The notes: generated by a model not told the origin, from the sequence alone. DNA of 64,000 nt from a virus (IMGVR_UViG_3300032132_000001:298573-362572); one strand, 5' to 3'; positions 11,572-25,704 are shown, counted from the stretch's first letter. Translations and numbers: made by a program.

Positions 11572-12131
11572 AGTTCAAGAAACCATCGCTCTTCAAGCTG
11601 TGCACCAAAGATGAAGCTACGCTATCCTTACCCTCTTGGCCAGTAACTCTGGAAGAGGGTAAGGAGGTCTTGATCCGGCTGCATCAGCATTTCAACCCAG
11701 ATGAGGGAGTAGGTCTGGCTGCCCCTCAGCTTGGAATCCACAAACGGGTATGCATGATCCATATCTCGGATGACAAGTACCCTGGTGGGTTCAAGCTAGA
11801 CTTGGTCAACCCTATAATCAGAAGCACAGCAGGCGAGACCATTCGCCATAAGGAGATGTGCTTCTCGGTTAGTAAGAGAACTCAGTATGCTGTAGCCAGA
11901 CATACTGAGATCACCGTGGAAGATGACCTCAATGGGGCTGTAACAGTCTCTGGTTTTCCAGCGTTCGTGGTCCAACATGAAGTGGACCATCTTAATGGGA
12001 TTACCATTCGTGCTAAGGGTACCAAGGTCGGAATGCGCCCGATAGTACGTAATGACGTCAAGGTTGGGCGAAATGCGCCTTGCCCTTGCGGCAGTGGTAA
12101 GAAACATAAGAAATGCTGCGGAGACCTATAA
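11481..12131 (+). CDS. def: peptide deformylase with a C-terminal SEC-C zinc-binding motif
   Basis: All three PDF motifs are present: [10 protein letters not shown] (GxGLAAxQ), EMCFS (EGCLS equivalent) and QHEVDHLNG (HExxH). C-terminus [14 protein letters not shown] is the SecA-type SEC-C motif. The start is ambiguous (ATG 11481 or in-frame GTG 11568, the latter abutting the upstream stop). Confidence 0.8.
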
Positions 12132-12466
12132 TGGACCAGCAAGCTCTTGGTAACGATGTCTGGGTGAGGGTGCTACCACCTGACGAGAGAACACCTGGTG
12201 GGTTGATCCTGCAAAGTGCAGAGAGCAACATGGGTGAAATCGTCAACATCGGTCCGGAAGTCCACGAGAAGCAGAAGCTCTACAAACCAAGCCAGCGGGT
12301 AGAAGCTGGAGACTTTATCTGGCTTCCTCGCGGCTCAAAGCTCGGAGAGCAGTACAAGGTTGGGAAAGAGATCTATATTCTCCTCCCCTTCACGCACTGC
12401 CGGTCGAAGTTTACTTCCCAGACTTCTTCGACGACCGACGCTCAGCTTTCGGCAACTTCCGCTTAA
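12131..12466 (+). CDS. groES: GroES-like co-chaperonin (cpn10 fold)
   Basis: Start at the internal ATG overlapping the def stop (TAATG). DVWVRVLPPDERTPGGLILQSAESNMGEIVNIGPEVHE...VEAGDFIWLPRGSKLGEQYKVGKEIYIL follows the GroES pattern (V.V....TAGGI.L........G.V.AVG.G......V..GD.V.F.KYGG.E........Y.I). Confidence 0.55.
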   Translation: MDQQALGNDVWVRVLPPDERTPGGLILQSAESNMGEIVNIGPEVHEKQKLYKPSQRVEAGDFIWLPRGSKLGEQYKVGKEIYILLPFTHCRSKFTSQTSSTTDAQLSATSA

Positions 12467-13043
12467 CCATTACCTTGTCGGCGAACCCGTACTTCACTGC
12501 TTCTTGAGCAGTGAAGTACTTGGTGTTCCGGTACATCTCCAAGAACTCTTTCTTGAGCATGCCCGTCCGTTCAAGGTAGATCTTGTGGACTGTCTGCTCC
12601 ACCTTCTTGGAGTGGTCTGCATAGGCTACTAGTTCCTTCGGAGTTCCCCAGAAGGATTCCTGGCCATCGTGTATCATCATGATAGCGTGTGGAGCCATGA
12701 TTCTTATGTCTGCGGCCTGGAAGATGATACTACCCATGCTCATGCAGTAGCCATATGCAGTGATGGTTACTCGGCAAGGGGAATTGCGAATAGCGTCGTA
12801 GACTGCCATGCCATGATAGTAGTCCCCGCCTGGGGAGTTCATAGTGACAGTGATCGGGTCCTTCGACACTGAATTCAGGATTGTGAACGATTTGATTGCC
12901 ATTTCAGCAATCTCGGCAGTCAACTCGTCGTCGTCGTCACTTCCAATGTAGATGTTTCTGTTTTCGACATCTAGATGATAATCGAAATAGCGCTTGATTC
13001 CTGCGTCTCGATCTTTGGGTTGCTTCCCTTCAGTCATCGCCAA
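12411..13043 (-). CDS. ClpP-family serine protease (S14)
   Basis: TVTMNSPGGDYYHGMAVYD...ITAYGYCMSMGSIIF...IMMIHDGQ aligns to the ClpP INSPGG / ICxGxAASMG / MIHQP blocks (Ser and His present). Convergent 56-nt overlap with the groES-like gene. Confidence 0.7.
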   Translation of the reverse strand: MAMTEGKQPKDRDAGIKRYFDYHLDVENRNIYIGSDDDDELTAEIAEMAIKSFTILNSVSKDPITVTMNSPGGDYYHGMAVYDAIRNSPCRVTITAYGYCMSMGSIIFQAADIRIMAPHAIMMIHDGQESFWGTPKELVAYADHSKKVEQTVHKIYLERTGMLKKEFLEMYRNTKYFTAQEAVKYGFADKVMVKRKLPKAERRSSKKSGK

Positions 13044-14444: not shown

Positions 14445-14829
14445 GGTTTTCTCCCAAGACTAACAATTTTCCAGCGCACTCTATGAGGTACTCAATCTGA
14501 GGGTCGATCTCAAATCGATCCCGCCTATCGAGCATGAAAGCTTGTTCGGGGTCCCACTGGTTCAACATCCCTGGGTGCAGTTCGTAGATCTGCTCTTGGA
14601 ACCACAAATAGGTCTCTATGATTGCGTTGAACCACGGTGGACTGTCGTCGCGTTCAAGTTCGACGTACATGGCAACCCTTCCACCCGGTTTAGCCAGTTC
14701 TTCTGGGTCTATTAGCAATACAATTTCGTTGAGGCCGCTCTTAGCTGCCCTTATTTCTTTTACGGAAACGAACCGTTTCGTCTTTATTCTGTATGTGTTT
14801 TTCACGGGGTATTTTTGAATAATTATCAA
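14329..14829 (-). CDS. hypothetical protein (166 aa)
   Basis: ORF; its 3' end overlaps the next gene by about 115 nt in another frame, so one of the two boundaries may be wrong. Confidence 0.35.
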   Translation of the reverse strand: MIIIQKYPVKNTYRIKTKRFVSVKEIRAAKSGLNEIVLLIDPEELAKPGGRVAMYVELERDDSPPWFNAIIETYLWFQEQIYELHPGMLNQWDPEQAFMLDRRDRFEIDPQIEYLIECAGKLLVLGENHEKLTNRPVARRVTANRVNIDPNKARTSRKNKLKARKS

Positions 14830-15167
14830 ACATACCCCATGCTAACAATCATCAAAGCCCCAAGGACGGTCCTCAGTCCGAACGATCCGCCATTGCAAAG
14901 AGTGCGGAATCCGAAGATTATAACTATACAGAGCTGCGGCGGTCAAACGAAACAGGTAATGGATACTGGGAAGCCGATCATTCTACCGCAAGATATCCCG
15001 TGCGCGAGCAAGTTCGGACCCAAAACTCTATTACCACCAGGGAGTCGCCAACCCCTAGTAGAAGCTCGACATATAGCCAGGATTGTTATGTTCGTAAATG
15101 GTATGAGTACCTTCAACCACGCGTAAGAATCCGCAAATATAAATAGAGATGTTTTAGAGGCTATCTG
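14830..15167. promoter_or_regulatory. divergent intergenic region upstream of the giant ORF
   Basis: 338 nt between a leftward array and the rightward 15168 array; the only ORF (14815-15126, Pro-rich) is unconvincing. Confidence 0.3.
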
Positions 15168-18100
15168 ATGAAACGACGTCTTATCAAGAACAAGAAGCTT
15201 GGATTCGTGGTCCGAGAGGCCGCTCCAGAAGATCCAGATCCAGAGTTCATCGAACCGGAAGATCTACCGGACGCGCCACGCCAGACTCACCGTGCTGGCG
15301 AGAAGTATATTGACCCTGATAAAAAGGACCCCGGAACCCCCATGGGCAAGGCCCGCAGGGATATTCCAGCAGGTCGGGGCCTACCAGCTGTCAAGAAGGG
15401 AGACCCGATACTATATCCTGGCCCTGGGCCAGAGAGACGGGAAATGGCTGCGCAGATGAAAGCGCAGCAAGAAAGGCGACCACAAGACATTGCAAAGGAA
15501 TTCGATAGCCAGTCTGTAATTGATGACGCCAATATGATCCATGGCCAGACCAAGCTGCGGACGAACCATCTAGCTCATCTAAACAAACTGCTTGACTGGG
15601 AAGGGGCTGAGGACGACACACGGGCTGCTGAAGCTAAGGGCGCGGTAATGCGTGCTATCACCAGGCACTCCGAAGCGCTGGCAAACCCGAAAAACGAAAA
15701 GCAAGAGAGCCTTTCCGACGAGATCGTCAGCAAGCTGAAAATCGCAGCGGCGTCAGCTGACGATCCAGATCTAGAAGGAATGGATCAAATAGAGGCAGAT
15801 GAACTATCTGCCAAGGCTACCAAAGCACTTGAACTAATAAGTGGAGATCTAATCTCGGTCGATGATTCCGAGATGGACGATTTCGAAGATATCCTCCCTG
15901 GCTTGGAGCGCGGTGAAAACGAGACCGACGAAGAGTGGATTGCTAGACTGAACGAACGCTATCGTCCACCGGAAGTAGATGAAGACACATGGCAAGAGTT
16001 CGATGACCTATTCATGGGTAAAGTGGATCCAGAAACTGGAGCACTAGACACTCTAACAAGGCAGGACATCACCTCAATAGAAAAAGCCAATGAGATGTCT
16101 ACCATTCGCGCAAGCGGTGATGGAGATCCGGAGCGTGAAGCCGCAGCGGGAATGAAGACCAGCTTGAAGCCTTACAAGACATTTATGAACAATGTCATGG
16201 CTATCAAGCAGGTAGATGACTACGACAAAAGGCGAGAACTGTTCAACAAGTACGCAACAGGCTTCGTGGCGTACATGAACCGCTATTCAGTCACAAACAT
16301 CGAAGACATTAAGACTGTAAGAGACCATGAGCGGGCTTGGAATAGCGTTGCCAGAAAGATTCTAACTATGGGTGGCGACCCGCGCCACATTAACCTTCTA
16401 GAAGAAGAGAATCGTCTAGACGCTTTCTCTAGAGACCTCATCAACATCGTGTCGTTCTACAGTCAAGAATCTGATGACAAGAATCTTAGTGCTATCTGGG
16501 ACGAGGAAGGCATTCTTCAACGTGTTGAGTACTATGAGGAGAAAGCTGCACCCCTAAGGCAGGCTCACAAAGCTGCAGAAAAGCAGAGAAGAAGTTGGGA
16601 TACTCAGGCTGAGAGAACCAAAGAAGAACTGAGAGGTGTTGGTAAGGAAGACCAAAAAGCCCGAAAGGCTGCAAAAGCCAAAAAGGAAAGAGCCGAGAAG
16701 TTCCAGGAAACTTGGACTGAGAAAGCAGAAGAAGCTAAGTCTAATCTGGATATAGTCCAAAAGCATATCGATTTCTACAGTGGTGCAGCTCAGCGATTCA
16801 CGGAACTCAAGGATCGCCAGCGAAACCAGCAGGAATCTTTTGCGTCTAGTTTGGTTGGTATCTCTAGTAGGCCAGAAGAATATCAGCAACTAATGACAGA
16901 GGTACAAGCTCTAAAGAATAGCGAAGAGCGTATTAAGAGGCAAGGTGGTAGAGCATGGTCAGTGCTTCAGGCAGCAGAGAAGAACTTCCAAGGTGTCCCT
17001 CCCCTTTCTGACAGCATGCTGAACACGCTAGGGCACCGCACTGGCAGCTTTGCAGCAAGGAAGGACCTAGAAGACCAGCTCCTCGCCATTTCGGAGACAG
17101 GACAGCTCTGGAACCCAGAAGATCCGGACTCTGAAGAACAACGGACAAAGCTTGTAGACCAGATTCAATCGTTGGAGAAATATTCAGAACTATTGGCTCT
17201 GCATGCAGAGCTTCTTGATGGAGTCTCTAAGCTAATCCCTCAAGAGTTGGGACTAGATGTAGAAGATCTACAAAGAGAACCTGTTAAGTTCCTGCAAGCT
17301 CTTGCTAGCTTCAAAGAGGCAGCAGACCAATCTGCAGCTGCGGGAGATCCACAGGCAGAAGAGAGATCAGCCCAAGCCGATAGACTTGAACAAGCTTCTA
17401 CCCAATTGGCCAATGTCCGTACTCAGGTAGCTGAAAAAGCAGACATCATGGGTCACATCGACGTGGAGTGGATGGGATCTGGCCTAGACAAAGACGATGA
17501 CGAACTGAAGGGTCACGGCGGTGGAATCGAGCGTCTAGTTGGCATTCTACGTCACATTTTGGAAAATGATGGTCAAGTACCACCAGAAGTTAGAACTGAT
17601 ATGGCCAACCAACATGGCCGACTAAAAGAGAGATTAGAAGGGGAAGTAGAGTCGCTCAAGCGTATCGCAGCGATCCGTGTACGAATGGAGAACTCCAAGT
17701 CGGATCTGGAGGTGTTCAATAGGTCGCTACAAGAGCTACACCAGGAAATCAAGAAGCTTGGAATCGTACGAAAGTACAAGGCGCACGACGAGCTATTGCG
17801 TCTGCTAGAGCAGTCGGAACCAAAATACAACGAAGATAGCTTCCATCAAGCAGTGGAACATTGGAAAAGCTTGGCTGGAGCTTCAAAAGACCGGAAGCGT
17901 CTAAGAAACGTGATGGCTCTCCAGAAGGAGCTTGGGTCCCACGAGCCGGGAAGCGACAGCTGGAAGAACATCTATTCCCAAATCCAGGAAACGATCGACC
18001 AAAGCGGCCTTGGCGACGAAATCATTCCATCAGAAGAAGACGAAGAAGACTCAGAGTTCATGGACGTGCCGGAAGGTATGACCGCCGATGAGCTAGATGA

Positions 18101-21100
18101 CTACGAAGAGGAAAACGCTCCTACTTCTATCAACAAGGCTTTGGGTAAAGCAAAAGGCGACTTCGACCCGGCGTCGTTCAGCAAAGCAATGAAAGAATGG
18201 GACCGTCTGAAACTGTCCCATGATGTCACTTCCGGGAAGGGAGAGGTAGGTGAATTCCTAAACACCTACATGGCTCAATTCAACAAGCCGATGTCCTACC
18301 AGATCATCCCTCTGGGCGCTGGTTATGTTGCGATTATCGACATCAGAATCAAGAAGCTAAAAGATCTATACCATTATCTTGAGCAGATTCGTACTGGGAA
18401 AGATGATCCGGCAGATAAAGAGTCTGAAGATCTTCCTAGCGGCATAAAAGAGCAAACTGCCGCTGCGAAGGCTAAAGAGGAATTCAGAAAGAAGGCTATT
18501 AAATCTGGCGAAATCGACCCGAACGATCCAGAAGAGAATAGAATCGACTCGGCCGACCTGTTCAACGCCCTTGGATCTCATAAGTATAAGGTAGTTGGAT
18601 CGGCCGCTCGCCGCGCTGACACATGGCAGAAGTACGGCACATTCCAGAAGCTGGTAGAGGCGCAAGAAAAGGTCCGCAAGAAAGTTGGTGACCTATTGGA
18701 CCAACTATATGGCATAGGCCAATGGCACAAAGCTCTAAAAGACCCAGAATTGCATTTGCCGCCGGGGCTGTTCCATGCTACTGGGCCAATTCGACCAGAA
18801 GACCTCACCGACAGAGGTGCTAGCCAGGGTGTGCGAGTAGAGACTGCCCCAGAAGACAAGCTGGTCGGTCTCAACACTATGCAGCAACTACATCGAAAGA
18901 GTGAAGGAAAGGCTCTAAAGGCTGAAGCGAGAAGAGCAGAAGCAGAAGAAGAGATCGCTATACTAAGGAATGCTACTCCAAACAGATTAAAGCAGAGTGG
19001 TGTTCACCTTGGGTGGGATAGTAATATTCCATATGAAAAACTCGCTTTCATGTACCAAGATACTGATTCGCCATTTTATTACAAAACTGTGAGGAACCAG
19101 CTCGCTAAACTATCTCTCCAAGGTAGTGGTGGGTCAGTAGATGAAAGGAATCTTCATAGGCGCTTGAGGAAGCTTGAAGGCCGTGCTAAGCATGCAAGAA
19201 AGATGTCTAAGATCGCTCGGTCTAAAGAGAAAGCTTGGAGGAAGCAACTTCTGTTCCTCGGAGCGCTGGCAGATGAACGCCCTGACCTATCTCCAGAATA
19301 TCTCAAAAGAAGAAGAGTGGAGATTGAGCGCAAAATAACTGAGTACAACAGTGAAAGGCGCGCATTCAACGTGAAAGTTCGTGATGTTCGCGAAGAGATC
19401 AAACAGTACAACTCTGCTAGCTGGCAAGATCTGAACACACGAGATAGGAGCAAGACCAAATCAAAGTCTGGAGGTCTGCTTGCGCCAGATGAAGTTCACC
19501 TAGCGTACGGGTTTGTTGAATATGTTACCAATACTATCAAGAAACTGGAAGGGAGAATCACTGCCGCTAATAACTCTTTGATAGGTGCCAACCAGAAGAG
19601 TACGATCGACGCCAAAAAGAAAGCGATGCTGAAGAATGCCATCAACTATCTGCTGGGAGGGCGCGATTCGTCTGGCGAAGAGATCCCGTTACACACAGTA
19701 ACAGAATATGGCCCGGACCAGAACAAGACGGTAATGTTCAACCCGGTGGTGGAGATGTATGGCTTGCGCCCATATGCCGGTAAGGGCGAGTATATGCCAC
19801 ATATCCCTCACAGGTACATGAGCGAAGAAGAAATAGACAACCGCACAATGTACTCTGCGTTGGATGCTTGCATCGATCAGCTGGCTACGATCGTTTCCGA
19901 TGTCGTACTCTACCTGATGGGTCACGGCAAGCTAATGGTTCGTGGTCATGGGTTTGCCACCGAACGTGGTTGGGCTTTCCTTCTTGCTGGTGTAGTCCAA
20001 CCATCAGCTGGCAAAGCAGGCCCAGGAAAAGCAACCGCCCTACAGAGAATTGGTCGCGACCATCTCTACTCAGTACAACTAGAAACCGAAGCGCGGGCCC
20101 TCTGGAGAGAAGGCGACGTAGACAATATCGAGATCCTATCTAAGCTCTTGAATGCTCACAGATTGAGCCGACCAAAGGGCTTTGAAGATGCGAATCTTCA
20201 ATCATTCCACCTAGCAGAGCATCTTGATAACTTCGTCGCCGATGAAGAAGGCGAAGAAGCTGAAGTAGATCAAGAGGGAATAAGGCAGCTAGCTGGAGAC
20301 GTAAGCTACAGTACAATCAAGGGTGTGATCTCTTCCTACGATAGAGTCCTGAAGAATGCTAATGAAGCTAAGGAAGCTGCGGCTGCCAGAATAGAAGAAG
20401 CACTCGAAGAAAGTGGAGAAACTCTTGAAGGGGATGAATTAGAAGATGCTATCGAAGAAGAGTGGAAGAAAGATGGGTACGGGTCCGCTATTCGATCTCT
20501 TAATTTCTACTCTAGGCTCAACGATGGTTTCAGTGAAGATGAAGCCAAAGAAATGGCAGATCGCGCTGACGGACCGAACAATCCGAGTGTCATTCAAAGG
20601 CGTCTAGAGCAAGCTGGAACGATGGAAGAGGAGCATCTTAGAAGAGTAACTTTCGCTAAGGAAGCTATCAGGCGAGCGGTGGCGGGTGCTGGATCGGTTT
20701 CTCCGCGCCTTCTCCGAAAGATCTACACTTCTGGTACCGGAGTCCTCAAATCGGTACTAGACGATTTCAAGGATGAACAATCAGCTGGCGCGAGCATCGG
20801 CGAAAGACGAGAGAAGATCAGCCATGCGATCGCTATGAATGATACTCGCGCATCTCGGATGGATGGCAATGTAGAGATGATAACTCCAAATATGGAGGCA
20901 GCCCAGGAGGCAGGAGATGAAGCGCTAATCAAGCACTATGCTTCATATATTGAAGCATGGGAAGATCACGCCGTCGAACTGCGAAATGAAATCGCTGAAC
21001 TTCAAGTACAAGATAGAGAGCTTGCTAAAAAGGGAGAAGATCTACCAGGCAAGGAACTCAACATAGATGGAATTAAGCACACGCTCAATTGGCATCGCGC

Positions 21101-23156
21101 TAAGATGCACGATGCTAGGAAAATGGACGAGCGCAGACGTGCTGAAGAAGGGCGGCTAACTAAGCTCTATCAAAACGCCAAGATGGCTCAAGAAAGAGTA
21201 GACGCGGAAGACCTCCAGATAATGATGACCGGCGGTGAAGAAGGATGGCTAGATGTTGGTCTGCTTGCACAAGAACTTGGTCTTAAAGGATCGCAAGCCA
21301 AGCGCATCAGCCAATTGGTAAATGGAGCTAGGAAAAGGACCGCTGCCGGAATCAAGAAATTGGGTAAGCCGGCGGCGATTCTAGCTAGTGGGATGGAAGA
21401 AGCGCAAAAAATCGCTGTTGGCCAAAGATATGCGCTAAACCAGAAGATCAGAGAACTACTAGAGGACTGGATCGAAGCTAAGAAGATCCCTTCTGAACTT
21501 CCATCTCGACACCGTACTGATAAGACGGACAGTACTCTTGGAAGATTCGACCAACGCGCTAAAGAATTCAACTCACCGGACATGCGCGGTGTTGGAGCAG
21601 GAAAAGTAAGAGCAGCCGATAAAGCAAGCAGCAGCGCATTGGTACTTGCAAGAGAGCTATACAGTTCTATTGGAAGCCAGCCAACTACCATAGATGAGAT
21701 TGAAGGGATCCTACAGTCTGGCCTTCAGGACAGCCGTAAGAATTTGGCCCTCTCCCGGAGGCTGTTACAAAGTTCAGAAGAAGAGCTGAAAGAAGCAATT
21801 ACTCAAAATAAAGAGCGGGAGAGATTTACCAAGTTCACGATGGACACCTTAACTAGACTGGCAGCTCACGAAGAGTTGAACCAGAAAGAAGGTGTAGAAG
21901 TGCCTCTGTTCGACGAATCTGGTCGTGTAAACATGGATATCACCGACTGGGTTCGTAATTGGGATTGGAAAGATGTCCAGAGACGAATTTCTGTAAGTGG
22001 CACCTTCCAAGAGTCGATGTCAGAAAAAGAGTTGGAAGAGTATCGTCAAAAGAGAGCAGAAGCTGCCGCTCGCGAGACCGAAGAACAACAAGCGAAATGG
22101 AATAAAGCGAAAGCCTGGCAACCATCGGACGAGCCAATCCGAGGAGAGCGTGGTACTGCTGGGATGGGCCATAGCAAGAGGGATGACCAACTTGCAAGAG
22201 AGGTGTCGGTCCCTCTTGGTAGCGTAGGACATGCAGAACTTATTGGCAACAAGTGGGAAGCTCTAACTGGTGTACGAGTCGTCGAGATTGACGAATATGG
22301 AGATAAGGAAGAGTCAGAAGAGGTAACAGCTGAACTCACCGGAATGATGGGTGGCAGAAGGAAAATCAGGATCAGAGCAAGCGGACAAGCCGACCCAGAT
22401 GCCGACTATAGGGTAGTGGGGCTCGCCGGCAAGAGGACTATTTCCCTGGACAAAGAAGTTGCGATTAAGATCACGCCTCCGCTTCCAGCGGAGACCATCG
22501 GTAAGGGTGACCTAGTTGTAATTGAAGGGGTAGACGACGCACCGTACATCAACGGCCTGAAAGGCCACATCCGGACTGTCGATTCCAAGCGTAAGCTGGT
22601 GGTAGTGGACCTATTCAAGAATGCTGTAGTCGAAGATAAATCGGTAATACTACAGTTCAAGGAAGTCTATCCTTACTATATCCAGGAAGGCTCCCGAAGG
22701 TTCAGCACGGCACCGACAGTGAGTATAACAAACCTCATTCAAGAAATCTTCGGTAGAAAGAGGATTCTAGAAAAAGCAGAGTGGAACCTGATTCCACTCT
22801 CTCTGCGAGACGGTCTTAGCATCTGCCTCACCGAAGCGATCACTTCTGACAACTGGGAAGCAGCTGAGAGAGCTACTAACCGCTTCATCCAAGATGTAGT
22901 TGTAAGCGAATCGGTGAGCGACAAGATCACCAACAAACTGAAGGTAGCATGGGGTAAGAAGTACTCACCGAAGATCTGGCGGATGGAGATCGACAAGTCT
23001 CGTAAGAGCCGAGGGTTGGCAACTCACAGGGAAAAGCTAGCCGCAAACGGTGGCTCTTCGACTACTCGATCTATCGCAGACCAGTGGATGAAAGGTCGCT
23101 CGGGAATGTCCGAAAACCAGATGGACAAAATTCTCGACACGATGCGCGATGACTAA
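15168..23156 (+). CDS. giant highly charged protein (2662 aa), probably an alpha-helical/coiled-coil structural or ejected virion protein
   Basis: Single uninterrupted ATG-initiated ORF of 7989 nt; E/K/R/D/A/Q-rich with long heptad-like stretches; I found no Walker, polymerase or protease motifs; several antisense ORFs inside are composition artefacts. Confidence 0.7.
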   Translation: MKRRLIKNKKLGFVVREAAPEDPDPEFIEPEDLPDAPRQTHRAGEKYIDPDKKDPGTPMGKARRDIPAGRGLPAVKKGDPILYPGPGPERREMAAQMKAQQERRPQDIAKEFDSQSVIDDANMIHGQTKLRTNHLAHLNKLLDWEGAEDDTRAAEAKGAVMRAITRHSEALANPKNEKQESLSDEIVSKLKIAAASADDPDLEGMDQIEADELSAKATKALELISGDLISVDDSEMDDFEDILPGLERGENETDEEWIARLNERYRPPEVDEDTWQEFDDLFMGKVDPETGALDTLTRQDITSIEKANEMSTIRASGDGDPEREAAAGMKTSLKPYKTFMNNVMAIKQVDDYDKRRELFNKYATGFVAYMNRYSVTNIEDIKTVRDHERAWNSVARKILTMGGDPRHINLLEEENRLDAFSRDLINIVSFYSQESDDKNLSAIWDEEGILQRVEYYEEKAAPLRQAHKAAEKQRRSWDTQAERTKEELRGVGKEDQKARKAAKAKKERAEKFQETWTEKAEEAKSNLDIVQKHIDFYSGAAQRFTELKDRQRNQQESFASSLVGISSRPEEYQQLMTEVQALKNSEERIKRQGGRAWSVLQAAEKNFQGVPPLSDSMLNTLGHRTGSFAARKDLEDQLLAISETGQLWNPEDPDSEEQRTKLVDQIQSLEKYSELLALHAELLDGVSKLIPQELGLDVEDLQREPVKFLQALASFKEAADQSAAAGDPQAEERSAQADRLEQASTQLANVRTQVAEKADIMGHIDVEWMGSGLDKDDDELKGHGGGIERLVGILRHILENDGQVPPEVRTDMANQHGRLKERLEGEVESLKRIAAIRVRMENSKSDLEVFNRSLQELHQEIKKLGIVRKYKAHDELLRLLEQSEPKYNEDSFHQAVEHWKSLAGASKDRKRLRNVMALQKELGSHEPGSDSWKNIYSQIQETIDQSGLGDEIIPSEEDEEDSEFMDVPEGMTADELDDYEEENAPTSINKALGKAKGDFDPASFSKAMKEWDRLKLSHDVTSGKGEVGEFLNTYMAQFNKPMSYQIIPLGAGYVAIIDIRIKKLKDLYHYLEQIRTGKDDPADKESEDLPSGIKEQTAAAKAKEEFRKKAIKSGEIDPNDPEENRIDSADLFNALGSHKYKVVGSAARRADTWQKYGTFQKLVEAQEKVRKKVGDLLDQLYGIGQWHKALKDPELHLPPGLFHATGPIRPEDLTDRGASQGVRVETAPEDKLVGLNTMQQLHRKSEGKALKAEARRAEAEEEIAILRNATPNRLKQSGVHLGWDSNIPYEKLAFMYQDTDSPFYYKTVRNQLAKLSLQGSGGSVDERNLHRRLRKLEGRAKHARKMSKIARSKEKAWRKQLLFLGALADERPDLSPEYLKRRRVEIERKITEYNSERRAFNVKVRDVREEIKQYNSASWQDLNTRDRSKTKSKSGGLLAPDEVHLAYGFVEYVTNTIKKLEGRITAANNSLIGANQKSTIDAKKKAMLKNAINYLLGGRDSSGEEIPLHTVTEYGPDQNKTVMFNPVVEMYGLRPYAGKGEYMPHIPHRYMSEEEIDNRTMYSALDACIDQLATIVSDVVLYLMGHGKLMVRGHGFATERGWAFLLAGVVQPSAGKAGPGKATALQRIGRDHLYSVQLETEARALWREGDVDNIEILSKLLNAHRLSRPKGFEDANLQSFHLAEHLDNFVADEEGEEAEVDQEGIRQLAGDVSYSTIKGVISSYDRVLKNANEAKEAAAARIEEALEESGETLEGDELEDAIEEEWKKDGYGSAIRSLNFYSRLNDGFSEDEAKEMADRADGPNNPSVIQRRLEQAGTMEEEHLRRVTFAKEAIRRAVAGAGSVSPRLLRKIYTSGTGVLKSVLDDFKDEQSAGASIGERREKISHAIAMNDTRASRMDGNVEMITPNMEAAQEAGDEALIKHYASYIEAWEDHAVELRNEIAELQVQDRELAKKGEDLPGKELNIDGIKHTLNWHRAKMHDARKMDERRRAEEGRLTKLYQNAKMAQERVDAEDLQIMMTGGEEGWLDVGLLAQELGLKGSQAKRISQLVNGARKRTAAGIKKLGKPAAILASGMEEAQKIAVGQRYALNQKIRELLEDWIEAKKIPSELPSRHRTDKTDSTLGRFDQRAKEFNSPDMRGVGAGKVRAADKASSSALVLARELYSSIGSQPTTIDEIEGILQSGLQDSRKNLALSRRLLQSSEEELKEAITQNKERERFTKFTMDTLTRLAAHEELNQKEGVEVPLFDESGRVNMDITDWVRNWDWKDVQRRISVSGTFQESMSEKELEEYRQKRAEAAARETEEQQAKWNKAKAWQPSDEPIRGERGTAGMGHSKRDDQLAREVSVPLGSVGHAELIGNKWEALTGVRVVEIDEYGDKEESEEVTAELTGMMGGRRKIRIRASGQADPDADYRVVGLAGKRTISLDKEVAIKITPPLPAETIGKGDLVVIEGVDDAPYINGLKGHIRTVDSKRKLVVVDLFKNAVVEDKSVILQFKEVYPYYIQEGSRRFSTAPTVSITNLIQEIFGRKRILEKAEWNLIPLSLRDGLSICLTEAITSDNWEAAERATNRFIQDVVVSESVSDKITNKLKVAWGKKYSPKIWRMEIDKSRKSRGLATHREKLAANGGSSTTRSIADQWMKGRSGMSENQMDKILDTMRDD

Positions 23157-25285
23157 TGCTCATTTTCACCACCGGAAGGATCAAGAGGGTTCTTAGCGAA
23201 GCGGACATTTCCGTAAAGTCTGGTAGCCAAAGAGGTTCGACCGAACCAGGCTCCCCGACGTCCCTCAGACTAGAAGCAGACCTAATTTTTTCAGGTCAAG
23301 AGTATACACGCCTGAAGCAAGAATTCCAATCAGAGCATGAGTCGGAATTCGATGATATCAGGATGAAGCTTGAGGAAATGCTGGGTCAGCCCTATGGTGA
23401 TCCTCCTCGCTCTCTTTCCAAGACTCAGGTTAGAAATCTGCTGTCGGCGCTAAGAGATGTTCACCAAGGGAGCTACAAAGACTGGCGCAAAAAGTACAAG
23501 GATGAACCCCCGAAAGAGAAGCACTATACGGACCGCCCACGGCGAGGAAAGATCAAGAAAGACAGCGACAGAATAGTATATGAGCTAGATTCTTCTGATC
23601 AATTGCAAGAGATTGTACTATTCCTCAACAAGATGGCAAGTGACCCAGATAGAATCCTGAATCTGCAGAACATGCTGAAGCAAGTATATGGCACTGAAAC
23701 TTATCCTTCAAGCGTCTTCTTCCGACAGCTAGAAGATCAAGTAAACGCAGGAGATCAAGAAGTTGTAGATCAATCGTTCCCAGAGGACGAAATAGAAGCT
23801 TTGTCGATGGGTCAATGGGTACTCCTCAAGTCTCTTGTAAACAGGAGGAGATTTATAAAGTCATTGAAAGTGTTCGATAGACGATACAATGATAGAGATA
23901 AGACAAGCAAAGAATCGCGCTCTGCTCTTCGCAAATATGCAGGTGCGATCCGCGACTTAGCTGGTAGAGTTAGTGCCTCTGTAGTGCCAACTAAGACCGT
24001 CCAATTCAGCATAATACCAGATGCTGAAACTGGACACTTCATCGTGCGGAAGTTCATCAATTCCGGCGGCGAAACAAGTACAATAGACACCACCGAAGGC
24101 CCAAGCGGCCCGATTGTGGCTCGTCACCAAAAAGGTGATCCCAATTGTGCTACTGCGATAGTTAGAGCCCAAGCCTCTACTTACAAAAAGCAAGGGTACG
24201 AAAGAAAGAAGGAAGAATACAGGGAAGATGATGAGGTCCATGAGCTTCTCAAGAAGACTTCCAAACTATTCGGATCGGGTTTCGATCAGTTCGTTGTAGA
24301 CCAACACCAGAAGAAGCTCGCTGACAAAATAAAAGAAGAGTTCGCTCCAATGAGCGAGCCTTGGCAGTTAGTCTTCCTAGGCGAACATGGAGACCAAATC
24401 GGTCGATTCAAGGCTTTGTACGGTAGAGCTGAAGATAGAGTATATGCTATCAAGGCTGAGTCGTCTGTCGCTTTGGGAAACAAGTTCGCAGAGCTACTAG
24501 AGAAAGAGCTAAGAGGACAAGATTTTAGCATAGCCAGATTGGCAGATCCTCTCCCCAACAGCAGACCGAATGGATTTGTATTCCAAACGTCGCTAGATGG
24601 AATTACCGATGTGGCTGCCGGATTAGACAGGCTGGATGATGAAGAACAGCCTGATATCGAAATCTTCCTACCTGGCATCAAGCATATGATTGCCACTGTA
24701 GTGCAAGATATGCTATATGACTACGAAGACACTCATGGGCCAAGCGAAGAACCTATCCCAGAGTATGAAGCTCTCCAGATGGATGATAGGACTAGGAAGA
24801 TATTCAGGAAATGGTTCAGTAAAAGACAAAGACCATTCGCTATCGATCACAATATGATAAAAATCGAAGGTGGCGAGATTGTTGCCCCTATCGGTGCGAA
24901 TCCGCAACCAGAGAAGGAAGTAGATCCGGAACTTGCTAATAATCCGGAAGTGCAAGATCTAATGGCGATCTTGCGTGGAGAAAAGAAGGGCGAGATCCAA
25001 GATTTCGGCCAGTGGGAACTCCACCGGATGTTCAAAGACCTACAAGATGCATCTACAGATCAAGAGGGAAACCCTATCAACTGGGCTAAAGTTGCACAAG
25101 ACTTGGGTCTAAGGAAAAAGACCCGAGATGAGTTAGAGAAAGAAGTCCAGAAGACAATGGACATCGGGAGATCTGGCCCACGACCGGAATATGTATCAAA
25201 GCCTGAGGAAGAACTGGAAGATCTCCCAGAATCTAAGATAATCGATGTGATCGCCGATCACACCCCGGAACATCCATCATGGTAG
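23156..25285 (+). CDS. large acidic hypothetical protein (709 aa)
   Basis: Start overlaps the stop of the giant gene (TAATG); D/E/K-rich. Confidence 0.6.
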   Translation: MLIFTTGRIKRVLSEADISVKSGSQRGSTEPGSPTSLRLEADLIFSGQEYTRLKQEFQSEHESEFDDIRMKLEEMLGQPYGDPPRSLSKTQVRNLLSALRDVHQGSYKDWRKKYKDEPPKEKHYTDRPRRGKIKKDSDRIVYELDSSDQLQEIVLFLNKMASDPDRILNLQNMLKQVYGTETYPSSVFFRQLEDQVNAGDQEVVDQSFPEDEIEALSMGQWVLLKSLVNRRRFIKSLKVFDRRYNDRDKTSKESRSALRKYAGAIRDLAGRVSASVVPTKTVQFSIIPDAETGHFIVRKFINSGGETSTIDTTEGPSGPIVARHQKGDPNCATAIVRAQASTYKKQGYERKKEEYREDDEVHELLKKTSKLFGSGFDQFVVDQHQKKLADKIKEEFAPMSEPWQLVFLGEHGDQIGRFKALYGRAEDRVYAIKAESSVALGNKFAELLEKELRGQDFSIARLADPLPNSRPNGFVFQTSLDGITDVAAGLDRLDDEEQPDIEIFLPGIKHMIATVVQDMLYDYEDTHGPSEEPIPEYEALQMDDRTRKIFRKWFSKRQRPFAIDHNMIKIEGGEIVAPIGANPQPEKEVDPELANNPEVQDLMAILRGEKKGEIQDFGQWELHRMFKDLQDASTDQEGNPINWAKVAQDLGLRKKTRDELEKEVQKTMDIGRSGPRPEYVSKPEEELEDLPESKIIDVIADHTPEHPSW

Positions 25286-25704
25286 AATTTGGACTAACGA
25301 GACATGTTTTAGTCACAGTGGTGAATAGCGCTGCTGGGCTGAATCAATATCCTACCACTCTTGATAGTCAGTCAGACGATCCTGAGACTTTTGTTTATCT
25401 GTCTGCTCAGCGTGCCCTGCGAAGCACCAATAAGAACAAATACAGAGATCAAGATATAATCAAGGAAGCGTTCGACCCGCAGCAGGTACCAACAGTTGTA
25501 CAAGCTTTCGGATTGGTAGGTGCGAATTTCAACGAATACACTGCCTTCAAGAGATCTAATCTAGACAACCCAGTCGGCCGAAACGAGCCCGTAAGGCTGA
25601 ACGAAGAAGTAGTATTGATAAGGAACGAGCTGCTCCCTATCCTGCGCGAGATCATAGCCCAAAGTATTTCAAGGCATAGGATCATACCAGCGAGGAAATC
25701 ATGA
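25279..25704 (+). CDS. hypothetical protein (141 aa)
   Basis: ORF with a 7-nt overlap upstream and an ATGA-type overlap downstream. Confidence 0.4.
   Translation: MVEFGLTRHVLVTVVNSAAGLNQYPTTLDSQSDDPETFVYLSAQRALRSTNKNKYRDQDIIKEAFDPQQVPTVVQAFGLVGANFNEYTAFKRSNLDNPVGRNEPVRLNEEVVLIRNELLPILREIIAQSISRHRIIPARKS

Follow-up and report, generated by a model that had tools for sequence, protein, structure and literature searches.

Scaffolding and internal-head proteins of tailed phages, such as P22 gp8, T4 gp22 and the T4 IPs, owe their function to short terminal docking elements. The C-terminus of the P22 scaffold binds coat protein, whereas the T4 proteins begin with a targeting peptide that is cleaved off at L/I-x-E. 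Small barrels serve for docking elsewhere: the Tudor-like domains of Mfd, CarD and PcrA and the KOW domains of NusG/Spt5 dock on the transcription-translation machinery. Giant phage proteins that are delivered with the virion include the RNAP of crAss-like phages, P1 DarB and T7 gp15/gp16. The N4 vRNAP gp50, about 3,500 aa long, also belongs here (PMC13434306).

The locus described below comes from an uncultured 397-kb tailed phage, and the window is the whole stretch of 64,000 nucleotides that was analysed. The source is a tailed phage: it has a Tail_P2_I baseplate gene ∼4 kb to the right of the window (>44 kb from X), a tail-fibre-like protein of 747 aa and a head-maturation protease. Two of its ORFs, X (p1) and Y (p2), are real genes, and lie among the following features.

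12131..12466, plus strand: GroES/Cpn10-like co-chaperonin gene, 2–3 kb from X (weak Pfam Cpn10 match; PHROG phrog_3188)
12411..13043, minus strand: ClpP-related head-maturation (prohead) protease, 2.1 kb upstream of X and on the opposite strand
14799..14818, plus strand: promoter-like motif TTTTCACGGGGTATTTTTGA (TTTCAY-N4-TAnnTTTG), 21 nt before the 95-aa gene; a candidate, by consensus match only
14839..15126, plus strand: conserved gene of ∼95 aa, first of the cassette, missed by the automatic gene caller
15168..23156, plus strand: giant protein X (p1), 2,662 aa, 300 kDa, pI 5.5
23156..25285, plus strand: coupled acidic protein Y (p2), 709 aa, pI 5.4
25279..25704, plus strand: 141-aa gene of the same rightward array, overlapping the end of p2 by 7 nt

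Like P22 gp8, T4 gp22 and the IPs, X is acidic, elongated, helical, fast-evolving and encoded near a prohead protease. It differs from them in being 5–10 times larger, in having no recognisable portal or capsid genes adjacent to it and in being missing at this position in some relatives. Its proposed docking element is a beta-barrel instead of a helix-turn-helix, and the protease is of the ClpP type, unlike that of the T4 system. With N4 gp50, the crAss-like RNAP, P1 DarB and T7 gp15/gp16, X shares its very large size, its poor conservation and its tandem arrangement with a large protein. Unlike these proteins, X showed no motif or fold of a polymerase, a methylase, a helicase or a transglycosylase; as regards a giant virion RNAP, it contains no DxDGD or other T7-like polymerase motif and has no PDB or Pfam match, and no double-psi beta-barrel was seen in the 1,164 of its 2,662 residues that were modelled, mostly with low confidence.

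The initial annotation had described X as an ATG-initiated frame of 2,662 aa without internal stops, joined by TAATG to an acidic protein of 709 aa, and both ORFs were confirmed. A GAGG-type ribosome-binding site lies ∼8 nt 5′ of the first ATG of X, and the X/Y junction reads GAC TAATG, a one-base overlap. Chance is excluded for X because the frame stays open for 8 kb at 49% GC. The identical protein is recorded in JGI, ENA and Logan assemblies (contigs of 397,419 and 176,964 bp), and a sequencing error that closes the frame, which had been named as grounds for rejecting X, is therefore unlikely.

Both proteins are acidic, with net charges of −69 for X and −21 for Y. Lysine, arginine, aspartate and glutamate together make up 32.9% of X, compared with a median of 26.6% for the 60 called genes of the window; the term ‘hyper-charged’ was overstated, as X ranks seventh of the 60. 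Self-BLAST gave no internal repeats, and there are two cysteines only, Cys1568 and Cys2553. The 19-residue hydropathy maximum of 1.44, at aa 1567, is below the transmembrane level, and neither a transmembrane segment nor a signal peptide is present in X. A search for Walker A, HExxH and DxDGD found none of them, and X belongs to no Pfam, PHROG, NCBIfam or PADLOC family, in agreement with the earlier statement that it lacks an enzymatic motif.

Heptad registers in X were scored against block shuffles. Only four segments exceeded the shuffles, each of ∼30 residues (aa 734–761, 830–864, 1384–1417 and 1928–1955). AlphaFold models cover 1,164 of the 2,662 residues, mostly with low confidence, which limits the fold test; their secondary structure is nearly all helix, in the form of many separate helices of 20–47 residues. 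X had been called a coiled-coil protein with heptad-like periodicity. This description applies to the four segments, but no periodicity was found over most of the length. X is a non-repetitive, mostly alpha-helical multidomain protein.

A word-indexed search of 5.8 billion proteins matched X to itself only, a homology search with Y likewise returned only Y, and neither matched Pfam, PHROGs, NCBIfam or PDB sequences. Exhaustive HMMER searches recovered one true giant homologue of X, P0003 (2,242 aa), which is syntenic in a related phage, and a family of 413–575-aa proteins that have only a C-terminal domain of ∼62 aa in common with X. Comparison with these proteins and the structural models divide X into the modules listed here.

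15168..15239, plus strand: N-terminal peptide (aa 1–24, MKRRLIKNKKLGFVVREAAPEDPD), conserved between X and P0003
18225..18725, plus strand: island 1 (aa 1020–1186), 36% identity to P0003 aa 1177–1330 (E 5e-22)
19137..19415, plus strand: long antiparallel helical hairpin in the AlphaFold model (aa 1324–1416), with one of the four heptad segments inside
19332..20066, plus strand: island 2 (aa 1389–1633), 27% identity to P0003 aa 1591–1858 (E 3e-13)
22161..22472, plus strand: beta-rich module (aa 2332–2435), related to the stand-alone protein P0009 and absent from P0003
22485..22682, plus strand: KOW/Tudor-type SH3-like beta-barrel (aa 2440–2505), the best-conserved module of the family
22683..23153, plus strand: C-terminal extension (aa 2506–2662), following the barrel and specific to p1

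In the N-terminal peptide, the columns invariant between X and P0003 are M1, R4, L11, F13, V14, R16, E17, A18, P20, E21, P23 and D24. Island 1, over which AlphaFold confidence is low, has the motifs KPxxYxIxP...GYxxIxxIRxxKLxDL and VGSAxRxAxxWQKxG in both proteins. The helices of the hairpin lie at segment residues 325–371 and 377–417, with block-mean pLDDT of 57–85, the only such part of model 2. The last 28 residues of the hairpin (aa 1389–1416) double as the first residues of island 2, which also holds the most hydrophobic conserved helix of X, ALDACIDQLATIVSDVVLYLMGHGK.

The beta-rich module has no Pfam family and is poorly modelled by AlphaFold (pLDDT 29–47). It is 35% identical over 107 aa to the 179-aa P0009, with an E value of 7e-13 in the pairwise comparison and 7.7e-4 library-wide. 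The beta region has a single DxDxD, the DPDAD at aa 2409, and P0009 lacks it. Judged by eye, the N-terminus of P0009 looks like a signal peptide. At the other side of the barrel, P0003 and all the small-family proteins end within ∼10 residues, unlike X, whose C-terminal extension is predicted to be helical with low confidence.

The barrel is the sole confidently modelled domain of X and, on the models, its only recognisable part, a small KOW-like barrel with the predicted fold of NusG/Spt5 KOW. The five-stranded SH3-like barrel of the model superposes on the NusG CTD and Spt5 KOW; the E values of all its Foldseek matches are above 1e-3. When seven domain sequences were compared with Pfam at E values up to 10, PF00467 gave no match, and the sole family shown was KOW6_SPT5, at E 0.1 and for one member only. 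A profile search of PDB sequences with the barrel found nothing significant. The likeness to the KOW domains of NusG/Spt5 and ribosomal protein uL24, and to the related Tudor barrels, is one of modelled fold. Unlike the KOW domains of NusG/Spt5 and uL24, the phage barrel has no significant Pfam KOW or PDB sequence match and ends helical proteins of 400–2,660 aa; unlike NusG/Spt5, X has no NGN domain. The predicted fold lends a hint to the earlier suggestion that X may interact with ribosomes.

X had also been placed at the head of a rightward array, directly after a divergent promoter region. This position is in fact taken by the conserved gene of ∼95 aa, which is 51% identical to L003 6284–6574 (E 4e-30) and 66% identical over 44 aa to L004 9683–9970; in L026 a match to its profile (E 3.5e-21) is found just upstream of X. 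The gene directly precedes the X protein in all three of these relatives, and has no Pfam, PHROG or NCBIfam family. The gene order [95 aa]-[X]-[Y] is kept in the window, L003, L004–L007 and L026/L027, which represent three lineages. The 95-aa gene, an X ending in or near a KOW/Tudor-like barrel and a coupled acidic Y are a previously undescribed cassette of uncultured huge tailed phages. Beyond it, the 141-aa gene, for which no family was matched, is 51% identical to L003 15439–15855, with weaker similarity in L004 and L020.

Within the cassette, the positional equivalents of X span 413 to 2,662 aa, a 6.4-fold range. Those of Y, with 685 aa (L003), 396 aa (L004) and 300 aa (L026), are all acidic and tightly coupled to X. 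Their common ground with p2 is limited to a short N-terminal peptide and, for the 685-aa protein of L003, a C-terminal motif, which also occurs in the barrel-bearing L024 ORF and is missing from Y of L004 and L026. The neighbours of the cassette are 50–76% identical between the window and L003, compared with 36% for the best island of X and no detectable similarity for Y. By this measure, divergence is far faster in X and Y than in the neighbouring genes. L020, a relative from IMG/VR, has neither X nor Y at this position: its small gene leads straight into the next conserved block. In seven relatives, no barrel domain was found within 10 kb on either side of the 93x-aa marker gene. The X/Y pair is therefore dispensable or mobile. 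What is conserved in X and Y are terminal modules: the C-terminal barrel, the N-terminal peptides of both proteins and, in part, the C-terminal motif. This pattern fits proteins that short docking elements anchor in an assembly.

The protease scored 121.1 bits (cutoff 120) against NCBIfam NF045542 ‘head maturation protease, ClpP-related’, 88 against a cutoff of 249 for cellular ClpP models, and E 7e-49 against PHROG phrog_94 ‘head maturation protease’. It is syntenic, and its arrangement with the GroES-like gene is the same in L003. The GroES-like gene matches phrog_3188 ‘co-chaperonin GroES’ at E 2e-8; its Pfam Cpn10 match is weak in the window and goes unmarked in L003. The promoter-like motif is part of an imperfect palindrome and is conserved in L003, ahead of the orthologue of the small gene. 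It has 6 matches in the window (1.95 expected), five of which lie shortly before gene starts and are correctly oriented, and TAnnTTTG occurs 8–80 nt before six gene starts (∼1.2 expected). The element resembles a host-type −7 box and would, on its sequence, suit early rather than late genes.

We tentatively assign X and Y to the prohead core or the interior of the head, as scaffold-like proteins or packaged cargo, while regarding this reading as somewhat short of probable. The two proteins would be recruited by their conserved terminal modules, and the barrel would dock on a conserved partner, for instance coat protein, portal or the 95-aa protein. A (V/I/L)-x-E-(A/G) site is carried by the N-terminal peptides, which may be targeting or propeptide signals that the nearby ClpP-related protease could cut. 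X itself, which has grown to its present length in this phage, is made up of a few conserved islands (the 24-aa peptide, the barrel and the two islands between them) parted by non-repetitive helical stretches with local coiled coils. These stretches grow and shrink freely among relatives, and the variable bulk would be under weak or diversifying constraint. As one option, packaged X/Y cargo could later be released into the host. X and Y are acidic and, by prediction, almost wholly helical with some coiled-coil hairpins, as is usual for scaffolding and core proteins.

An internal-virion or scaffold role was among those first suggested for X. The support is circumstantial (the protease and GroES-like genes 2–3 kb away, acidic helical coupled proteins, terminal modules that are kept), and the role is unproven. 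Several observations count against assignment to the prohead core. Neither a portal nor a major capsid protein nor a terminase could be recognised close to the cassette, and the window as a whole showed no portal or major capsid gene and has metabolic genes interspersed; most genes in between and alongside have metabolic or host-directed functions (NUDIX, peptide deformylase, SOD, adenosine deaminase and sugar-nucleotide enzymes). The protease is encoded on the opposite strand. Cleavage at (V/I/L)-x-E-(A/G) is known for T4-type proteases and not for ClpP-type prohead proteases, and the motif is found near the N-terminus of 7 of the 69 window genes, about the chance rate. A dispensable or mobile pair would be unusual for an essential scaffold, the partners best known for KOW-type barrels are RNA polymerase, ribosomes or nucleic acid and not capsids, and the host-type −7-like box would suit early genes.

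Some other role, such as an intracellular cytoskeletal or compartment organiser, or a surface or adhesion protein acting through the beta-rich module, is possible but doubtful. It gains from the lack of any detectable relative of known function in the family and from the kinship of the beta-rich module with P0009 and its signal-peptide-like N-terminus. Weak SMC-like coiled-coil matches (LmuB at 17.7 bits; JetC and ASRP for relatives) point the same way, but they are low-scoring, as coiled-coil composition produces, and no ATPase head accompanies them. X lacks both a secretion signal and a transmembrane segment, and nothing positive was found for any specific alternative.

The main rival is that X is a cytoplasmic host-takeover adaptor, which we regard as unlikely. 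The barrel would dock on RNA polymerase, ribosomal protein S10, Rho or nucleic acid, by analogy with NusG/Spt5 KOW, while the long helical body would recruit or sequester factors, with Y and the 95-aa protein as co-factors. P0003 carries the Pfam zf-HC2 anti-sigma (ZAS) motif H-x25-H-x3-C-x2-C at 24.3 bits, above the gathering score of 22.2, as well as a weak RsrA match. However, the motif is in a lineage-specific N-terminal stretch that is missing from p1, which has no HxxxCxxC, no Pfam match and no cysteines other than the two given above. The phage encodes its own sigma-70-family factor 9 kb upstream, and a release factor, a peptide deformylase and a NUDIX enzyme nearby; together with the host-type TAnnTTTG box, these genes favour an adaptor. 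Fast evolution, large indels and patchy presence are also typical of host arms-race proteins. Against this, SH3-like barrels are ubiquitous and the fold is common to many small phage proteins of unknown role, the barrel has no significant match to KOW among Pfam or PDB sequences and no Foldseek E value below 1e-3, and X contains neither an NGN nor another transcription-factor domain.

A tail tape measure or other length ruler is very unlikely. Tape-measure proteins are, like X, long, mostly helical with local coiled coils and variable in length among relatives, and the phage has a contractile-tail-type baseplate gene. Unlike them, X lacks hydrophobic and transmembrane segments, glycine-rich stretches and lytic domains, and is not encoded in a tail module, with no tail tube, chaperone or hub genes beside it. 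The 6.4-fold size range and the absence from L020 do not suit the ruler that had been proposed, and a C-terminal SH3 barrel would not be expected as the only conserved part. An artefact (assembly chimera, pseudogene or non-coding open frame) can be given practically no weight: it has in its favour only that word-indexed searches found no database relatives of X and Y, and is effectively refuted by the independent assemblies and by a homologue that is syntenic, collinear and alike in its conserved islands, in addition to the length of the frame, the ribosome-binding site and the translational coupling.

There is a slim chance that these genes specify phage proteins of a new, size-plastic class, in which the single conserved barrel, with the co-conserved 95-aa partner, would anchor a helical body of ∼400–2,700 residues. 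If so, X might be an expandable internal scaffold or filler of the capsid, whose size would track the evolution of giant capsids. Alternatively, it might be a packaged giant effector with a NusG-like KOW domain that would hijack coupled transcription-translation after injection, and which in some lineages would also carry an anti-sigma module.

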